Of a stretch of DNA of 64,000 nt, positions 57,026 through 63,484 are shown in pieces. The stretch's first letter is position 1. Each line of letters opens with the position of its first letter. The DNA lies in NCBI GenBank assembly GCA_964586675.1, contig CAZPHQ010000012.1, positions 436 through 64,435 on the forward strand, given 5' to 3'. A model generated the notes under the pieces. It ran no database searches, had not been told where the DNA came from, and saw only the letters and a list, made by a program, of their open reading frames with translations. The translations under genes and the position numbers were made by a program. Source of the stretch: an uncultured Spirochaetia bacterium (GTDB lineage: Bacteria; Desulfobacterota_D; UBA1144; Nemesobacterales; UBA2774).

Positions 57026-57859
57026 TCAGGCTGTGCACCCGGGCATTCTTCCCGAGTTCCCGGTAATGTCCGCCCGTTCCAGACGGCGTTCGCCACTATA
57101 GGCGGAGCTGATTATGTTATGCAGCTCGGATGCGAGGTCCTTTCTGGAATTCGATGAAGACGCGTCCACGGGCTCCAGGATCTTGAGCTCGGCGTCTATG
57201 GATTTGACGGTCAGGAGCGTATCCGCGTGCTTGAAGAATTCCATGTCGCCGTAAAAGTAAACGAGGTCCCTGTTGTGAGGGCCGATATCCTCCCCGTCTA
57301 TCTTCGTGTACTTTATGCAGACGGGCAGAATCTCCACCCCGGCTTTTTGCGCGACGCTTAGAAGAGGGACTTTAAACGGCAGCACCCGCTCTCCGCTGGA
57401 CGTGGTCCCTTCGGGAAAGAGCACGACGTTCAGGCCCATTCTGAGTATATCTACTATGGATTCTATTTCCGAGCGCAGGTTGGTCCTGTTCCTCCTTTCC
57501 ACAAAGAACCCGCCGCTGAGCTCTGTGGCCCTGCCCAGGAGGAAAGTTTCCTTTACCTCGTCGACGCTCGCTATAAAGCAGGCCGGAAACTCCGAAAACA
57601 ACAGGAATATGTCGAGATAGGACACATGGTTTGACAGTACTAAATAGGTCTTTTCCCTGGAATAACTGCTTCCGCTTTTATCCATGCGGACCGTGATTCC
57701 GAAGTTCTTCTTCATGAGCTTCGAGAAAAAAGATGTCAGCCTCATACAAGTGTAGAGCATCTTTTTTCTGTCGCGGAGGATCTTTCTAGCTACCGTGGTG
57801 CTGATCAGAAATGACGAGACTATGCCAAAGAAAAAGAATTTCTTTAAGAGCTTTTTAAT
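57026..57859 (-). CDS. olsA: Lyso-ornithine lipid O-acyltransferase (OlsA-like, PlsC family)
   Basis: NHVSYLD, LFPEGTTS; coupled to an olsB-like gene. Start uncertain: ATT 57859 or ACG 57862 inferred, ORF track uses TTG 57907. Confidence 0.7.
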   Translation of the reverse strand: MKKLLKKFFFFGIVSSFLISTTVARKILRDRKKMLYTCMRLTSFFSKLMKKNFGITVRMDKSGSSYSREKTYLVLSNHVSYLDIFLLFSEFPACFIASVDEVKETFLLGRATELSGGFFVERRNRTNLRSEIESIVDILRMGLNVVLFPEGTTSSGERVLPFKVPLLSVAQKAGVEILPVCIKYTKIDGEDIGPHNRDLVYFYGDMEFFKHADTLLTVKSIDAELKILEPVDASSSNSRKDLASELHNIISSAYSGERRLERADITGNSGRMPGCTA

Positions 57860-58712
57860 CGTTTGCTCCCTTGTACCTCTTTTCAAATGATTTTGAAAGG
57901 AGCTCAAGGTCGAGCACGGTGAAGAAATCGGCGCACTTGAACTTCATGTCGATTGCGGGCTCGCCGCATATGACGGACCCCGCCTTTAGATAGCTCTTTA
58001 AAAGGGGAGGTATAAATTCCTCTATGGATTCGGTCTTTATGCCGAACTTGTCGAAGGCACTTATGTAATGGTCGAGCTCCTTTATCCTGTGTTTTTCCTT
58101 CGGGAAAACCCTGAAATCTTCAGGCGACAGGTAAAGCTCCTTTATGTACTTGTATATAAGGCTTATCTCGACAGGGTTCGTCGTCCCTATGCTGGAGCAG
58201 CCGAAGAGGTACTTTGCCTTTATGGCCCTGAAGTATTCTGTCAGCCCTTTCCATAGGAGCGCGATGCCGGTGCCGTTCCTGTAGTCCTTGTGAACGCAGG
58301 CCCTTCCGAGCTCGAGCTTTATGCCGCTCGCGTTTTTTACCTGCTCGATATCGAACTCGGACTCCGAATAAAACTTGTCGGAAAAGGTGGACGATATGAA
58401 CCTGTATGTTCCGATGACCATGTTCTGCTTCTTCTCGAGTATTATGAGATGGTCGCAGATGGAGTCGAACTTGTCTATGTCGGTCCTGGTGAAGTTGTCC
58501 TTGTTGAGAGTCTCCCTGTAGAAGACCTCGTATCTCAGGTCGAGAGCCTGCTCCAGCTCGAAAATGTTTTCGACAGTTTTTATTACGAAGCGGTTACTTT
58601 CTATATAAAGCGGGACCTTGGGCCGGAACTGCCGCAGCTTCCACTTGAACGCGCTCCTTAGGACGTTCGAGCCTGTGACAGTATTCTTCAATGATGTGAC
58701 TTTTTTCGTCAT
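57855..58712 (-). CDS. olsB: GNAT-family ornithine N-acyltransferase (OlsB-like)
   Basis: LRYEVFY.E, DKFDSICDHL, GTYR, FYSESEF, LELGRACVH.DYR, LFGCSS, PPLLKSYL..G..ICGEPA.D..F..ADFF. Confidence 0.8.
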   Translation of the reverse strand: MTKKVTSLKNTVTGSNVLRSAFKWKLRQFRPKVPLYIESNRFVIKTVENIFELEQALDLRYEVFYRETLNKDNFTRTDIDKFDSICDHLIILEKKQNMVIGTYRFISSTFSDKFYSESEFDIEQVKNASGIKLELGRACVHKDYRNGTGIALLWKGLTEYFRAIKAKYLFGCSSIGTTNPVEISLIYKYIKELYLSPEDFRVFPKEKHRIKELDHYISAFDKFGIKTESIEEFIPPLLKSYLKAGSVICGEPAIDMKFKCADFFTVLDLELLSKSFEKRYKGAND

Positions 58713-59191
58713 ACGATTGTTTTCTCCGGTAGCCTTTCTAACACAGTTTTATAACATCCAAATATTTAGTTTCAGCTAATCAGCGGTTAATTCACCGTTT
58801 ACAAGACGTATCCATTATATCTAAAAAAGGGATATAAAGTCCAGATGCGAACGGGGCGAATTGTTCGGGACGAACCTGCATTTCCTCTAAATATTCCCTT
58901 AATAAAATGGAATTACAATACTTTGCGGAAAGTGCCGCCGCATATGTGCCATACTACACTATCGCTTTTAATCGACCGAAAAGAGTGGAGAGCATCCTCG
59001 CGGAGCCCCCACCTTCGCTTCGGGGACGGGCCGCTTGGAATAAAAAGCGCGATGGAATATAATTTGGTTTCTCCCGCAGGCGCGGCTCGTTCATTTAAAA
59101 TCTGTTTTCGGGGCGGATTCGGAGCGGCTGCCGTAGCGCTCGCCGCATATCCGTTCCGGAGCCGCCGTGGCCACGGCCTTATAGATCTGAC

Positions 59192-60256
59192 ATGAAAGTA
59201 CTGTTCGGCATACAGGGTACAGGCAATGGCCATATCTCCCGCTCACGCGAGCTCCTCCGCTATCTCCGGGAGCGCGCGAGCGTGGACGTTCTCCTGAGCG
59301 GATACCATCACGAAGTCGATCTGGGATTTGAGGTCAAGTACAACCTCCCCGGGCTCGGGTTCACCTTCGGCAAGAGGGGGGGCATAGATTACGTCCAGTC
59401 TTTCAGGCATTTAAGCCCGCGAAAGCTTATCTCGGACATATACAGTCTTCCGGTCGAAAAATACGACCTCGTGCTCACCGACTTCGAGCCCATAACGGCC
59501 TGGGCGGCGCGCGTTAAGAGGCGCCCCTCTGTCGCCATATCGCACCAGGCGGCGCTCCTTTCCCCCAGGATCCCTCGTCCGCCCGGCGGCCGCAACCGGT
59601 TTCAGGAAATGGTGCTCGAATGGTACGCCCCCGCGCCAGTTCTTATAGGGCTCCACTTCGAGCGCTACGACGATTTCATATTCACGCCGATAATAAGGGA
59701 AGAGGTGAGGAAGCAGGAGCCGCGGAACGACGGTCACTATACCGTGTATCTCCCTTCCTACGACTACGCCCGCATATCCGGGATACTGAAAAAAATAGAC
59801 GTGGAATGGGAGGTCTTTTCAAAGCACCACAAGGGCGAGGCGTTCGAGGACGGTAACGTTACTGTCCGCAGGGTCGATAACGCCGGCTTTGTGCAAAGCC
59901 TAGTCACGTGCGAGGGCATATTGTGCAACGCCGGTTTCGAGGCGCCGGCCGAGGCCCTTTACCTCGGGAAGAAGATAATGGTCGTCCCGATGAAAGGGCA
60001 GTACGAGCAGCAGTGTAACGCAGAGGCGCTCGGAAGAATGGGTGTGCCCGTGATAAGAAGGGTCGACGCCGGATTCCCGGACATCTTATCCGGCTGGATA
60101 AATTCCGGATATTCCTACAGGCCAGATTACCGGAACAACCTTCCGGAAATAGTCGACAGGATACTCGAAGGCCGCCCGGACGCAGGGCGCGCGGACGAGC
60201 TTAACTCCGAAAGCGGACTCGGCGGCGACAGGGCCCCCTTAGGCCAGCCGGAGTAA
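59192..60256 (+). CDS. GT-B glycosyltransferase, MJ1255/Glyco_trans_1_3-like
   Basis: GIQGTGNGHISR, TDFEPITAWA, NAGFE.PAEALYLGK, PMKGQYEQQCNA. Confidence 0.85.
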   Translation: MKVLFGIQGTGNGHISRSRELLRYLRERASVDVLLSGYHHEVDLGFEVKYNLPGLGFTFGKRGGIDYVQSFRHLSPRKLISDIYSLPVEKYDLVLTDFEPITAWAARVKRRPSVAISHQAALLSPRIPRPPGGRNRFQEMVLEWYAPAPVLIGLHFERYDDFIFTPIIREEVRKQEPRNDGHYTVYLPSYDYARISGILKKIDVEWEVFSKHHKGEAFEDGNVTVRRVDNAGFVQSLVTCEGILCNAGFEAPAEALYLGKKIMVVPMKGQYEQQCNAEALGRMGVPVIRRVDAGFPDILSGWINSGYSYRPDYRNNLPEIVDRILEGRPDAGRADELNSESGLGGDRAPLGQPE

Positions 60257-60301
60257 AACCCCGGCGCGCATTTCCGGCCCCGCTATTCCCCGCGGCGGTT
60301 T

Positions 60302-60874
60302 TTACTGCTTTGATTCGCCGCCCCTGGTCAGGAGCGAAAGGTTTAAGAGCTTCTCGGCGATGTTTTTATATATCTCGCCTATCTTGAGGAGATTCAGGAC
60401 TTCGTCCATGTTGTGCCAGTCCTGGACGAGATATGTCAGAAGCACTCTCTTGTGCTGATCCTCTATCGACTCGATGAGAGCATAGTCCTCTTCGAGCTTT
60501 TCCGAGTTTGGTATCTCCTTTTTCCCGTGCTCGACGAGGGAGATAAGGTGCGGGAGGAGGATATCGAGCATCTGTTTCGTATCGAATTCCCGGCAAACAG
60601 GTTTTTTCGATTTCATATTCTCCATGAGCTGGACGGAATAGTCGAACTTCTGGATAATGGACAGCATGAGGCCGAATACTGCCACGTTATCCTGATTCTT
60701 GTGCTTTTTGTTTTTTTCCAGCTTGGACTCGAGCTTCAGCTTGAGGTGTATGAGATCGTTTCTGAGCGCGATGAGATCGCTTTCGCTGCGCGAGTTGATG
60801 TAATTCTTAGACTTCGAAACCAGTCTCTCGAATTTGCTCTCTATGAGCAGCTTCTCAATATCGTCGGTTTCCAT
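60302..60874 (-). CDS. All-helical protein, divergent PhoU-like
   Basis: GGGAG RBS; C-terminus IESIEDQHKRVLLTYL...LNLLKIGEIYKNIAEKLLNL resembles a PhoU helical repeat. Confidence 0.55.
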   Translation of the reverse strand: METDDIEKLLIESKFERLVSKSKNYINSRSESDLIALRNDLIHLKLKLESKLEKNKKHKNQDNVAVFGLMLSIIQKFDYSVQLMENMKSKKPVCREFDTKQMLDILLPHLISLVEHGKKEIPNSEKLEEDYALIESIEDQHKRVLLTYLVQDWHNMDEVLNLLKIGEIYKNIAEKLLNLSLLTRGGESKQ

Positions 60875-60926
60875 CGGATTCTCCCTGGAGTTCTTTTTGG
60901 CTGAGGAAGGTAGTCTATCTGTGAAT

Positions 60927-60955
60927 TGTTAAGACTATGTTAAGAATTTGTTAAG
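60927..60955 (-). promoter_or_regulatory. Pho-box-like direct repeats
   Basis: Three exact CTTAACA on the minus strand with an 11-bp period (60927-33, 60938-44, 60949-55). Confidence 0.75.
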
Positions 60956-61000
60956 AAAATCTGCCTTAGGTCCCGGCGGAAATCGGCCTGAGCCGCTTTT

Positions 61001-61984
61001 TCACGCGAGATGGTTCACGAACTGCTCGGCTATGGAATCCCAGCTCTGAGACCGCGCATACGCGAGAGCGCCGGCGGAAACGTAATCCAGGTTCCCGAAA
61101 GCGTTTTCTATATTTTCTTCGAGGTTGTCCCCGAGGTAACCCGTGGCCCCGTGCCTCACGATATCGCTCGGGCTCGGCACGTCGTACGCCGCCACGGGAA
61201 GCCCGCACGCCATCGCCTCAAGAATGACCAGGCCGAACGTGTCGAGCCTGCTCGGGAAGACGAATACGTCGGCCCTAGCGTACATCCGCCGGAGCTCACC
61301 GTGGGGAACCGGGCCGGTGAACTCGACGTCCGGGTATTTCGCCCTGAGCGCGGCGAGATAAGGCCCGCCGCCAACGAGTATTTTTTTGTATCCGCGTATC
61401 CTGCAGAAGTCGTCGAGATTCTTGTCCCTGCTCACCCGCCCGACGGTTATGATCGTTCTCTCCCCCCGCGGCTTGGTTTCGGGTTCCGGGTAAAAGAGCT
61501 CCGCGTCGACGCCCCGGCCCCACACCATGCAGTTACTGAGTCCGAGCTCCCTTGTTATGCTCCTCGTCGTGACGAGCACCTTCCGGCTGCACATGTGGAA
61601 CCATCTGATGTAAGCCCACGTCATGAACGCCGGAACTTTATAGAGAAGCCAACCGTAATCCGCGATCCTCGTATGGTAGGAGGTGTTGTAGCTTATCCGG
61701 TTCTTCCTGCAGAGCTGCCTTACGGCGAACCCCAAAGGCCCTTCTGTTGCGATATGCACCCTGTCGGGCGAGCAGGCGCCCAGGTACCTGTCCGCCAGGT
61801 CGGCGGCATTCGTTACGACCGGTATGTTGTGTATCAGAATGGGAAGCGTTTCCGACCCCTCGACGTAGGGATTGAGCACCGTAATGTCGTGCTCTCTTCG
61901 AATGAGATCCGTTATGTAGCTCAACGTATGCGCGACGCCGTTTATCTGTGGTGGCCACGCATCCGTTACGAGCAGGATCCTCAT
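61001..61984 (-). CDS. GT4 glycosyltransferase, Agt-like (candidate glycosyl-diacylglycerol synthase)
   Basis: MRILLVTDAWPPQINGV..TL, HIATEGPLG, SYHTR, WGRGVD, VGRVSRDKN, DTFGLVILEAMACG. Confidence 0.85.
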   Translation of the reverse strand: MRILLVTDAWPPQINGVAHTLSYITDLIRREHDITVLNPYVEGSETLPILIHNIPVVTNAADLADRYLGACSPDRVHIATEGPLGFAVRQLCRKNRISYNTSYHTRIADYGWLLYKVPAFMTWAYIRWFHMCSRKVLVTTRSITRELGLSNCMVWGRGVDAELFYPEPETKPRGERTIITVGRVSRDKNLDDFCRIRGYKKILVGGGPYLAALRAKYPDVEFTGPVPHGELRRMYARADVFVFPSRLDTFGLVILEAMACGLPVAAYDVPSPSDIVRHGATGYLGDNLEENIENAFGNLDYVSAGALAYARSQSWDSIAEQFVNHLA

Positions 61985-62035
61985 CGAGTTATCCTCCGAT
62001 TGAAAACCTCTCCGGGTTCTTCGGGCGGCTCATGT

Positions 62036-62674
62036 TCATAGCGAGTTGGTAAGGTAGAGAATGCCGATAACGGTAACTGCGCCGAGGAAGCTGCCGGCGA
62101 TTGTCTGGTAGAGCGTGTGCCTTCCGAGCCTTATTCTCGACCACGCTATGACGGGTATTATGAGGGTTAATGGTATCACCGCCTCACCGTAAAGCGCTAT
62201 AGCCAGGAACGAGAGCCCCGCGGCCGAGGTGCAGTGACCGCTGATCTTCCATTTAAGCGTTATCAGGAAGACGAGCAGTATCTGAATGAGCGCGACGGCC
62301 GTTACGATAATCATCAGCCTCGGCGCGTCGAGAAGAAAAGTTACGATGAAAACGAGCGAGGCGTATGTAAAAATCACGAGGAGCGGCTTTGCGCGCTCTT
62401 CCCTTCGGCTCAGGTGAAAATCGCTGACGGCCCCTGAATGGACGAGCGAGAAAATGTAGAGCGTCGGCGGTATTATCAGAAGCGCTATGAAGACGAATAT
62501 CCACGAGAGCGACGAATCGGCCTTCGCGGCGTGCGCCGTTACGACGATGCATGCAAGCGCTATGAGCGGGGGGCTGAAGACGTTGGAGATGAGACGCGCC
62601 GACTTGTCTCGCCATCCCTCCGGGATGACTATCGGCTCCGCCGACTGCTGATATAGTTTTTTGTCAGTTTCCAT
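62036..62674 (-). CDS. PAP2-like integral membrane phosphatase
   Basis: About 6 TM helices; KISGH (C2-like) and WSRIRLGRHTLYQ (C3-like); start placed at METDK after GGAG. Confidence 0.7.
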   Translation of the reverse strand: METDKKLYQQSAEPIVIPEGWRDKSARLISNVFSPPLIALACIVVTAHAAKADSSLSWIFVFIALLIIPPTLYIFSLVHSGAVSDFHLSRREERAKPLLVIFTYASLVFIVTFLLDAPRLMIIVTAVALIQILLVFLITLKWKISGHCTSAAGLSFLAIALYGEAVIPLTLIIPVIAWSRIRLGRHTLYQTIAGSFLGAVTVIGILYLTNSL

Positions 62675-63398
62675 TTCGGAACTCCGTGTCCGAATCGTAT
62701 CCGCGCCAGTATCCCCAATCGCCACCGCGCCATCTATCCGGAATCAGCCCGAAGTAAAGCGCGGTGCATCTCGTGAGAGAGTGAAGGGTCTTTTTCGTCC
62801 TTCCCATTTCCACCCGCCTGTGGTCCTTCGCGTAAACGACGAGGTCGAAGGTGAAGTGCGCTGTAAATCCCGAGCGCTTCACTCGCCATGCGAGCTCGGA
62901 GTCTTCGTTGCACGCGAGCGCCGCATCGAAGCCCCCCGATTCGAGGTAGGCTTCCCTTCGTATAATGAAGTTCGACCCCGAGGCAGCCGGAACACCCAGA
63001 AGGTGTATCAGGAATTGTCCGTAAGCGAACCATTTATAATAGCCCGCGTACCTGTCGCGGGAGAGCTTTGGTCCGTAGATCAAATCGTATTCTTCGAGCT
63101 TCCGGATGTTGCTGAAGTACTCCTCGGAGAATACGACATCGGCGTCTGTAAAGAGGAGCCAGGGTGTATTGGCCGCGTCCGCTCCCGCCAAACGCGCTTC
63201 TGTTACGGTGCCCGGATACCTGATAAGTGTAGTATAATGCGGGCGCGCCCGAGAAACAATATCGGGCGTCGAATCCGTGCTGGCGTCTACCACTACCAGC
63301 CTTATCCCGTCCGGTATCGAGCCCAGGAAATTTCCGATGTTCCTTTCTTCGTTTCTGGTGGGAACAATTACAGTTAAATCGCCGGGATGAATCGCCAT
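62664..63398 (-). CDS. GT2 glycosyltransferase
   Basis: VIVPTRNEE, VVDAS.D, FTDADV, GGFD, NEDSEL. Confidence 0.9.
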   Translation of the reverse strand: MAIHPGDLTVIVPTRNEERNIGNFLGSIPDGIRLVVVDASTDSTPDIVSRARPHYTTLIRYPGTVTEARLAGADAANTPWLLFTDADVVFSEEYFSNIRKLEEYDLIYGPKLSRDRYAGYYKWFAYGQFLIHLLGVPAASGSNFIIRREAYLESGGFDAALACNEDSELAWRVKRSGFTAHFTFDLVVYAKDHRRVEMGRTKKTLHSLTRCTALYFGLIPDRWRGGDWGYWRGYDSDTEFRNGN

Positions 63399-63423
63399 TA
63401 CGATTAATATATTAATGACGGCG

Positions 63424-63462
63424 TATTAAGGCGCTTTTAACGAAGTGTGAATTTGCAGTTAA
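63424..63462 (-). promoter_or_regulatory. Pho-box-like phased repeats
   Basis: Minus strand TTAACT, TTCACA, TTAAAA, TTAATA starting at 63462, 63451, 63440 and 63429 (exact 11-bp period). Confidence 0.6.
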
Positions 63463-63484
63463 AGGACGGCGCTTTCAGGGCGCC

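Follow-up and report, generated by a model that had tools for sequence, protein, structure and literature searches.

Pho boxes built from 11-nt repeats with a lineage-specific consensus are well established in bacteria (PMC4415409). The PhoB box of Escherichia coli is composed of 11-nt direct repeat units that end some 10 bp ahead of the −10 element (PMC4415409, PMC1906773). The SphR boxes of cyanobacteria occur at pstS and at nuclease and phosphatase genes, as in the genome described here (PMC1906773, PMC4195498), with the repeats of Synechocystis lying 61-182 nt upstream of the start sites (PMC4195498). In Pseudomonas, Pho boxes have been described upstream of genes for lipid glycosyltransferases and a metallophosphoesterase (PMC8528852). 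Our literature search returned no paper describing a Pho box or regulon in Dadabacteria, and the available text of the main genomic study of the group mentions transporters only (PMC8115339). We analysed a 64,000-nt stretch of DNA from an uncultured bacterium that we place in this lineage by the labels of its relatives (contig CAZPHQ010000012.1, positions 436 to 64,435; assembly GCA_964586675.1), hereafter the window, in which three arrays of phased repeats precede lipid-related genes and a gene encoding a 190-aa PhoU-fold protein. Judging from sequence, these arrays are very probably Pho boxes bound by the single PhoB-like regulator of the genome, which would switch on phosphorus-free lipid genes together with the PhoU-fold gene.

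The three series that a sequence-only reading of the window had described at 60927-60955, at 63424-63462 and from 58765 onward were all found at those coordinates. The arrays and the −10 elements predicted for them are listed by window position:

58763..58801, minus strand: array 1 in its preferred reading, TAAACG/TTAACC/TTAGCT/TAAATA, facing olsBA
58748..58753, minus strand: predicted extended −10 (TG-n-TATAAA) of a Pho-type olsBA promoter, 9 nt past the last repeat
60927..60955, minus strand: array 2, CTTAACA three times (60955-60949, 60944-60938, 60933-60927)
60912..60917, minus strand: predicted −10 of array 2, TAGACT, at a 9-nt gap
63424..63463, minus strand: array 3, four units (TTTAACT/ATTCACA/GTTAAAA/CTTAATA), upstream of the GT2-PAP2-GT4 operon
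63409..63414, minus strand: predicted −10 of array 3, TAATAT, at a 9-nt gap

The unit has the consensus yTT(A/C)AC(A/T), most typically yTTAACA, and is repeated in tandem with an 11-bp period, giving the two or more direct repeats of 11-nt period that characterize a Pho box. The regularity of array 2, which also has an 11-nt period and lies with the start of the 190-aa open reading frame (ORF) 53 nt downstream, was evaluated against the 169 copies of CTTAACA present in the genome (both strands counted), from which 0.005 pairs per spacing and about 1e-7 triples are expected. Three pairs were observed at the 4-nt gap, two of them contributed by array 2, and none at each of the 11 other gaps tested. 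With a matrix built from pstS arrays of relatives (the reverse matrix below), sites above 20 bits numbered 12 at period 11 and 1, 0, 0 and 2 at periods 9, 10, 12 and 13, respectively, with 0.2 in shuffled sequence (ten dinucleotide shuffles, 1681 intergenic regions). Array 2 is the top-scoring three-unit site of the genome, and at least two exact units were retained in 27 of 30 loci with diverged flanking sequence; the three misses correspond to a contig end (L045) and to two loci from other families. Array 3 was retained in the 13 GT2 loci tested, all of them with a TAnnnT hexamer at the 9-nt gap, and it precedes the PAP2 gene in five of the six loci without GT2.

The scan proposed in the sequence-only reading was carried out with a forward matrix trained on the 11 units of the three window arrays only, in a 97%-complete genome whose genes outside the window were predicted with a simple in-house caller (2660 genes, some with wrong starts). 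This matrix placed the pstS promoter second genome-wide, as the best site outside the training set. A CHAD-ParA-CYTH operon ranked third, the gene divergent from pstS fourth, the phosphate-selective porin O/P gene fifth and a 5′-nucleotidase gene tenth, and the top ten also included a Ysc84-like gene, a site without a gene and a phosphoglucomutase-family gene. A reverse matrix was built from 28 distinct pstS arrays of relatives, the rank of the genome's own pstS being circular in this case. It placed array 3 sixth and array 2 seventh when four units were used, and array 2 first when three units were used. Boxes of at least 16 bits were present at pstS in 18 of the 20 genomes from other families used for this scoring, out of 23 that carry pstS. 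The motif thus occurs at pstS and at other phosphate-scavenging genes, as expected of a Pho box; phoA, phoX, phoD and ppk1 were not found in the 97%-complete genome. There was also no pstS match with the query used in five of the six genomes of family f7 (G044, G048, G052, G056 and G059), in agreement with the published finding that phosphate transporters are missing from most Dadabacteria of the marine pelagic zone (PMC8115339).

Outside the window, the candidate regulator is encoded as follows:

C32:3002-5516: PhoB/PhoR-like two-component pair, with a regulator (C32:3002-3691) made of a receiver and an OmpR winged helix and a PAS-HisKA-HATPase kinase

The regulator had PhoB as its best NCBIfam match (240 bits), and the kinase matched PnpS (387 bits, cut-off 400), WalK (329 of 725) and PhoR (308 of 334). 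The pair and the boxed porin O/P gene are transcribed divergently, and of the 23 other-family genomes having pstS, 16 carry an OmpR-family gene no more than 10 kb from it. Trans_reg_C gave a single match in this genome and one in each of six genomes of the same genus, which makes the action of another OmpR-family regulator improbable. The sequence-only reading had named binding by such a regulator as one outcome that would overturn it, and little room is left for it when the sole Trans_reg_C match is PhoB-like; together with the rank of pstS and the matches at phosphate genes, this result supports the Pho-box interpretation offered there. The recognition helix of the regulator, RTIDVHIKNLR, presumably differs from that of E. 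coli PhoB at the basic pair.

The position of the boxes relative to the −10 element was examined using −10 weights that correspond to E. coli frequencies. A −10-like hexamer was located 9 nt past the last heptamer in 11 of 17 hand-delimited sites, and in at most two at other gaps. With automatic delimiting, 7 of the 15 best sites had the 9-nt gap, compared with 2 of the 25 sites ranked after them and 3 of the 40 after those; any other gap occurred at most twice among the top 15. The boxes therefore hold a fixed position relative to the −10, in the manner of E. coli Pho promoters, and from this geometry we infer that phosphorylated PhoB (PhoB~P) would replace the −35 element.

Several observations weigh against the Pho-box reading. 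One of the two ppk2 genes has just a weak two-unit site, 357 nt upstream, and several top sites precede genes without a known phosphate role (Ysc84-like, Pfam-less ORFs). The pstS hexamer at the −10 position, TTTACT, is a poor match, and the only signal at phoB is a mirror of the porin box that lacks a −10 at 9 nt. In this genome array 1 scores a low 14.8 bits, a level at which about one in seven matches would be due to chance. Finally, the regulator and the kinase, at 240 and 308 bits, fall below the curated proteobacterial PhoB and PhoR cut-offs of 296 and 334. This last point would also suit a system in which the same single OmpR-family regulator responds to another signal, such as envelope or wall stress in the manner of WalR, with pst and the lipid genes as part of the response; the kinase matches WalK and has a Cache_WalK domain, and many of the targets are membrane related. 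We consider this explanation very improbable, because the best matches of the two proteins are PhoB and PnpS/PhoR, the regulator is linked to pstS in those 16 of 23 genomes, and the targets include pstSCAB-phoU, porin O/P, the nucleotidase and an ExeM/NucH-like nuclease fragment. Scarcely credible is the idea that the phased TTAA hexamers serve to bend the DNA or act like UP elements, or that an unrelated repeat-binding regulator uses them. They are AT-rich, partly palindromic and phased near the helical repeat, as such elements would be, but 19 sites exceed 16 bits at period 11 and none does at period 10, and the sites are strand-specific, fixed relative to the −10 and concentrated at phosphate genes.

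The orientation of array 1 requires separate consideration, since the hexamers, being partly palindromic, score on both strands. The sequence-only reading had placed this array on the plus strand, as the weakest of the three. The sequence and the weakness of the array were borne out: the plus-strand hexamers (58765-58803) are present, with 10.8 bits and rank 73 for an independent matrix, a level at which 75 real matches are found vs 32 in shuffles. The strand assignment did not hold. With the same matrix, the minus reading ranked 27th (26 real sites vs 3.6 shuffled at 14 bits or more), and it outscored the plus reading in 14 of the 14 relatives keeping olsB, reaching 18-21 bits in nine of them, so that a plus-strand operator is disfavoured. 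The minus reading is followed by a TAT-starting hexamer at the 9-nt gap in the 14 relatives, and across relatives the extended −10 lies 27-37 nt ahead of the olsB start. On these sequence comparisons, array 1 most likely serves olsBA on the minus strand, and the plus series is probably its mirror image, arising from the palindromic TTAA core, as the minus reading scores higher both here and in the relatives. An unlikely variant would retain arrays 2 and 3 as Pho boxes and regard array 1 as non-functional or as a plus-strand element for the glycosyltransferase gene. It draws on the low scores of the array in this genus (10.9-14.8 bits) and on the plus reading, which in this genus also has a −10-like hexamer (CATTAT, at a 9-nt gap) and is the best plus site in two same-genus loci; the consistent advantage of the minus reading in relatives stands against it, as does the fact that the glycosyltransferase gene has a conserved plus-strand array of its own. 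This additional array raises the earlier count of three, and its position with respect to the other elements of the olsB-glycosyltransferase gap is as follows:

58887..58904, plus strand: fourth array, CTAAATA/CTTAATA, with a weak third unit at 58876; oriented toward the MJ1255-family glycosyltransferase gene
58914..58919, plus strand: predicted −10 of the fourth array, TACAAT, 9 nt past the last repeat
58814..58843, minus strand: conserved sigma70-like promoter TGGACT-N18-TATAAT, immediately preceding array 1; a second promoter predicted for olsBA
59035..59063, plus strand: conserved sigma70-like promoter TTGGAA-N17-TATAAT, predicted second glycosyltransferase promoter

The fourth array has two good units in this genome and three full units in eight genomes of another genus, and its TACAAT was retained in 12 of 12 correctly aligned relatives (L061, which was mis-trimmed, was not counted); in the other genera, most loci showed no such array. 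In the gap as a whole (58713-59191), each direction has one predicted Pho-type and one conserved sigma70-like promoter. On the olsB side, bound PhoB could block the sigma70-like start while opening the Pho-type start, given that the Pho array sits just downstream of the sigma70-like −10.

The lipid-related genes that these predicted promoters would control are the following:

57026..57907, minus strand: olsA-like acyltransferase (PF01553; best NCBIfam match lyso-ornithine lipid O-acyltransferase, 123 bits, cut-off 300)
57855..58712, minus strand: olsB-like ornithine N-acyltransferase (PF13444; best NCBIfam match OlsB, 139 bits, cut-off 350)
59192..60256, plus strand: MJ1255/VC2487-like glycosyltransferase (PF13528; TIGR00661, 148 bits, cut-off 196)
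61001..61984, minus strand: GT4 glycosyltransferase (PF00534/PF13439)
62036..62674, minus strand: PAP2-like membrane protein (PF01569, 32.3 bits, above the cut-off), start perhaps at 62725
62664..63398, minus strand: GT2 glycosyltransferase (PF00535)

According to the model we propose, phosphate shortage would result in phosphorylation of the PhoB-like regulator and in its binding to the 11-bp repeats, where PhoB~P would cover the −35 position and bring in polymerase with sigma70, in the manner of the Pho promoters of E. coli. The genes turned on in this way would be olsBA, for ornithine lipid, the MJ1255-family glycosyltransferase gene, the PhoU-fold gene and those of the GT2-PAP2-GT4 operon. 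As a likely result, phosphorus-free amino- and glycolipids would take the place of membrane phospholipids. Low phosphate reportedly induces ornithine lipid. The GT4 enzyme may resemble Agt, and a calcineurin-like metallophosphoesterase gene preceded by a four-unit box (C21:37112-37953, plus strand, locus L009), located away from the lipid locus, is a candidate for PlcP; both the GT4 enzyme and the C21:37222 enzyme gave only general matches, to the GT4 and calcineurin-like families. The metallophosphoesterase box was retained in 18 of the 20 loci examined, one of the other two being too short and one having no box. The Pho control of lipid glycosyltransferases in Pseudomonas was counted as support for the Pho-box reading (PMC8528852). 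Our literature search on the function of MJ1255/VC2487 found nothing relevant. Upstream of the GT2-PAP2-GT4 operon lies an ArsA-like ATPase gene.

The gene downstream of array 2 corresponds to a second PhoU paralogue:

60302..60874, minus strand: diverged PhoU-fold protein of 190 aa, identified by profile and structure matches, without a Pfam match

It was present in 28 of 32 genomes of the family and in 2 of 28 others, the relatives carrying it being labelled Candidatus Dadabacteria, Thermodesulfobacteriota, or only loosely; only 28 representatives among 1.84 billion matched the protein. Its profile matched Aquifex PhoU (1t72) with E 4.4e-4, and its alignment with the genome's own PhoU was weak. 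PF01895 (PhoU) was absent from the 25 families listed for 25 members of the 190-aa family at E up to 1. As the single-sequence fold was poor (pLDDT 57), an alignment-based model was used instead (pLDDT 84), which predicts the two tandem three-helix bundles of the PhoU fold. Comparison of this model with PhoU structures gave Z 17.6 and rmsd 2.8 over 189 residues, that is, the whole length, with PhoU or PhoU-like titles in five of the top seven rows, and Foldseek returned PhoU entries at ranks 1-9, none of them reaching E 0.001. Identity to PhoU is 12-19%. PhoU has acidic E(X)3D motifs, which bind metal, in both repeats, and the 190-aa protein does not keep this pattern: the first motif, ERIGD, is replaced by a gap and non-acidic residues (in an N-terminal half whose alignment is of low identity), and the second, ERVAD, by KNIAE with an invariant Lys. 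The C-terminal repeat retains D130, E135, E138, R143 and the TYL stretch. The gene lies outside the pst operon, which has a normal phoU of its own. PhoU has been described as a bridge between PstB and the PAS domain of PhoR, with an unclear mode of release (PMC13577022). Our literature search on PhoU paralogues found nothing relevant. The 190-aa protein likely adjusts Pst/PhoR signalling; that it acts as a PhoU decoy is a guess, and it could alternatively form a second brake or take part in lipid remodelling.

Among the strongest boxes of the genome, one with four repeats and an extended −10 has no gene downstream (C21:31902-32070, plus strand; L006:1402-1570). It is followed by about 95 conserved CU-rich nucleotides and then by a terminator-like hairpin with a U-run (z −4.1), in which 6 of 13 pairs show compensatory changes. 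Full-length matches to this element were found in 28 of the 32 family genomes, short DNA matches in G001 and G044 not being counted; 27 of 29 sequences were aligned and 21 folded, with L157 and L161 excluded as near-duplicates. In G009 the element adjoins the PAP2/PhoU-fold locus. No Rfam family matched it at the gathering score, the one hit (15.5 bits, cut-off 45) falling over the promoter repeats. A 41-codon reading frame over the RNA was rejected because indels of 1 and 2 nt in close relatives break it. We regard the element as a candidate PhoB-activated small RNA. Whole-genome duplex scans gave no convincing target. As a candidate target, phoU mRNA ranked 35 of 2647 start regions here, but it was rejected because across 24 genomes it reached the top 2% in two and was average or weak in the rest. 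The 97%-complete genome yielded no hfq.

From these two components we tentatively suggest that the Pho regulon of Dadabacteria may have two unrecognised feedback parts, a starvation-induced PhoU-fold decoy and a family-wide PhoB-activated small RNA of about 95 nt, a proposal we regard as possible rather than probable. The PhoU-fold protein, whose gene lies behind the strongest predicted Pho promoter of the genome, would displace PhoU or pair with it, keeping PhoR on while the membrane is remodelled; this idea derives from the loss of most of the acidic metal/phosphate motifs. The small RNA would act by base-pairing, the search for Hfq in this genome having been negative.

Other boxed genes add to the draft regulon. 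A strong box precedes a secreted Ysc84/SYLF-like protein (C1:208079-208856, plus strand, L005; Atlas 0.92, with the family found on 58-100% of members), a possible lipid-binding member of the regulon. The CHAD, ParA-like ATPase and CYTH operon (C5:96639-99549, plus strand, L002) is preceded by a box that a perfect TATAAT follows after 9 nt; CHAD and CYTH are linked to polyphosphate. Divergent boxes serve the 5′-nucleotidase and the ExeM/NucH-like nuclease (C28:28030-31123, L007), the latter split into several ORFs by the caller, so that the gene may be broken or mis-assembled. A choice-of-anchor I protein that carries a phytase-like domain as an insertion and has a box upstream of its gene (C9:60553-63484, plus strand, L008) is possibly the phosphatase of this genome, where phoA, phoX and phoD went undetected. 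Between pstB and phoU lies a low-molecular-weight phosphatase/arsenate-reductase-like gene (C29:25945-26373, minus strand, L003; PF01451). Boxes were also found at four ORFs without a Pfam match, C29:32632-33275 (plus strand), which is the ORF divergent from pstS, C39:16213-16505 (minus), C4:72338-72663 (minus) and C7:96327-97029 (minus).

For Candidatus Dadabacteria, these results supply a workable model of the operator and a draft of the Pho regulon, and they extend PhoB-controlled phosphorus-free lipid remodelling, as a prediction, past the proteobacterial models. The control of PhoR by PhoU is still called unclear (PMC13577022), and a paralogue that keeps the fold, has altered acidic motifs and is placed under a Pho promoter of its own offers a test of which PhoU surfaces count. 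The C21 candidate small RNA has a sharply defined promoter and terminator.

Compared with described systems, this one is of a known kind, in a lineage that had not been studied, and its new parts are the paralogue with the PhoU fold and the small-RNA candidate. The hexamer fits the Bacillus subtilis PhoP consensus, TT(A/T/C)ACA. The likeness to the cyanobacterial SphR box claimed in the sequence-only reading was confirmed, the unit being near-identical to CTTAACCT (PyTTAAPyPy(T/A)), with the same 11-bp period and three to four tandem repeats; unlike in the SphR box, the repeats here end 9 nt before the −10 and the sixth base is preferentially A or T over C. With E. coli PhoB the system shares 11-nt units, a similar −10 distance and the control of pstSCAB-phoU and a phosphate porin, whereas the E. 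coli unit, CTGTCAT, is different. The box thus combines a cyanobacterial-type sequence with an E. coli-type promoter geometry. In comparison with the PlcP-Agt/OlsBA remodelling under PhoBR in Pseudomonas and other proteobacteria, olsBA, a PAP2-like gene, a PhoU-fold gene and three glycosyltransferase genes from different families are gathered here in one locus, and the boxed metallophosphoesterase gene is on another contig. The 190-aa protein shares with PhoU, according to the predicted model, the double three-helix fold over its whole length. Few phosphate-induced small RNAs have been described (PMC11522486). The C21 element has no Rfam match and is not downstream of phoR, in which it differs from Bacillus PhoS and Synechocystis PsiR1. 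By analogy of layout, PhoS would be its nearest counterpart, since both combine an extended −10 with four Pho repeats and are C-rich in their 5′ part (PMC11522486).

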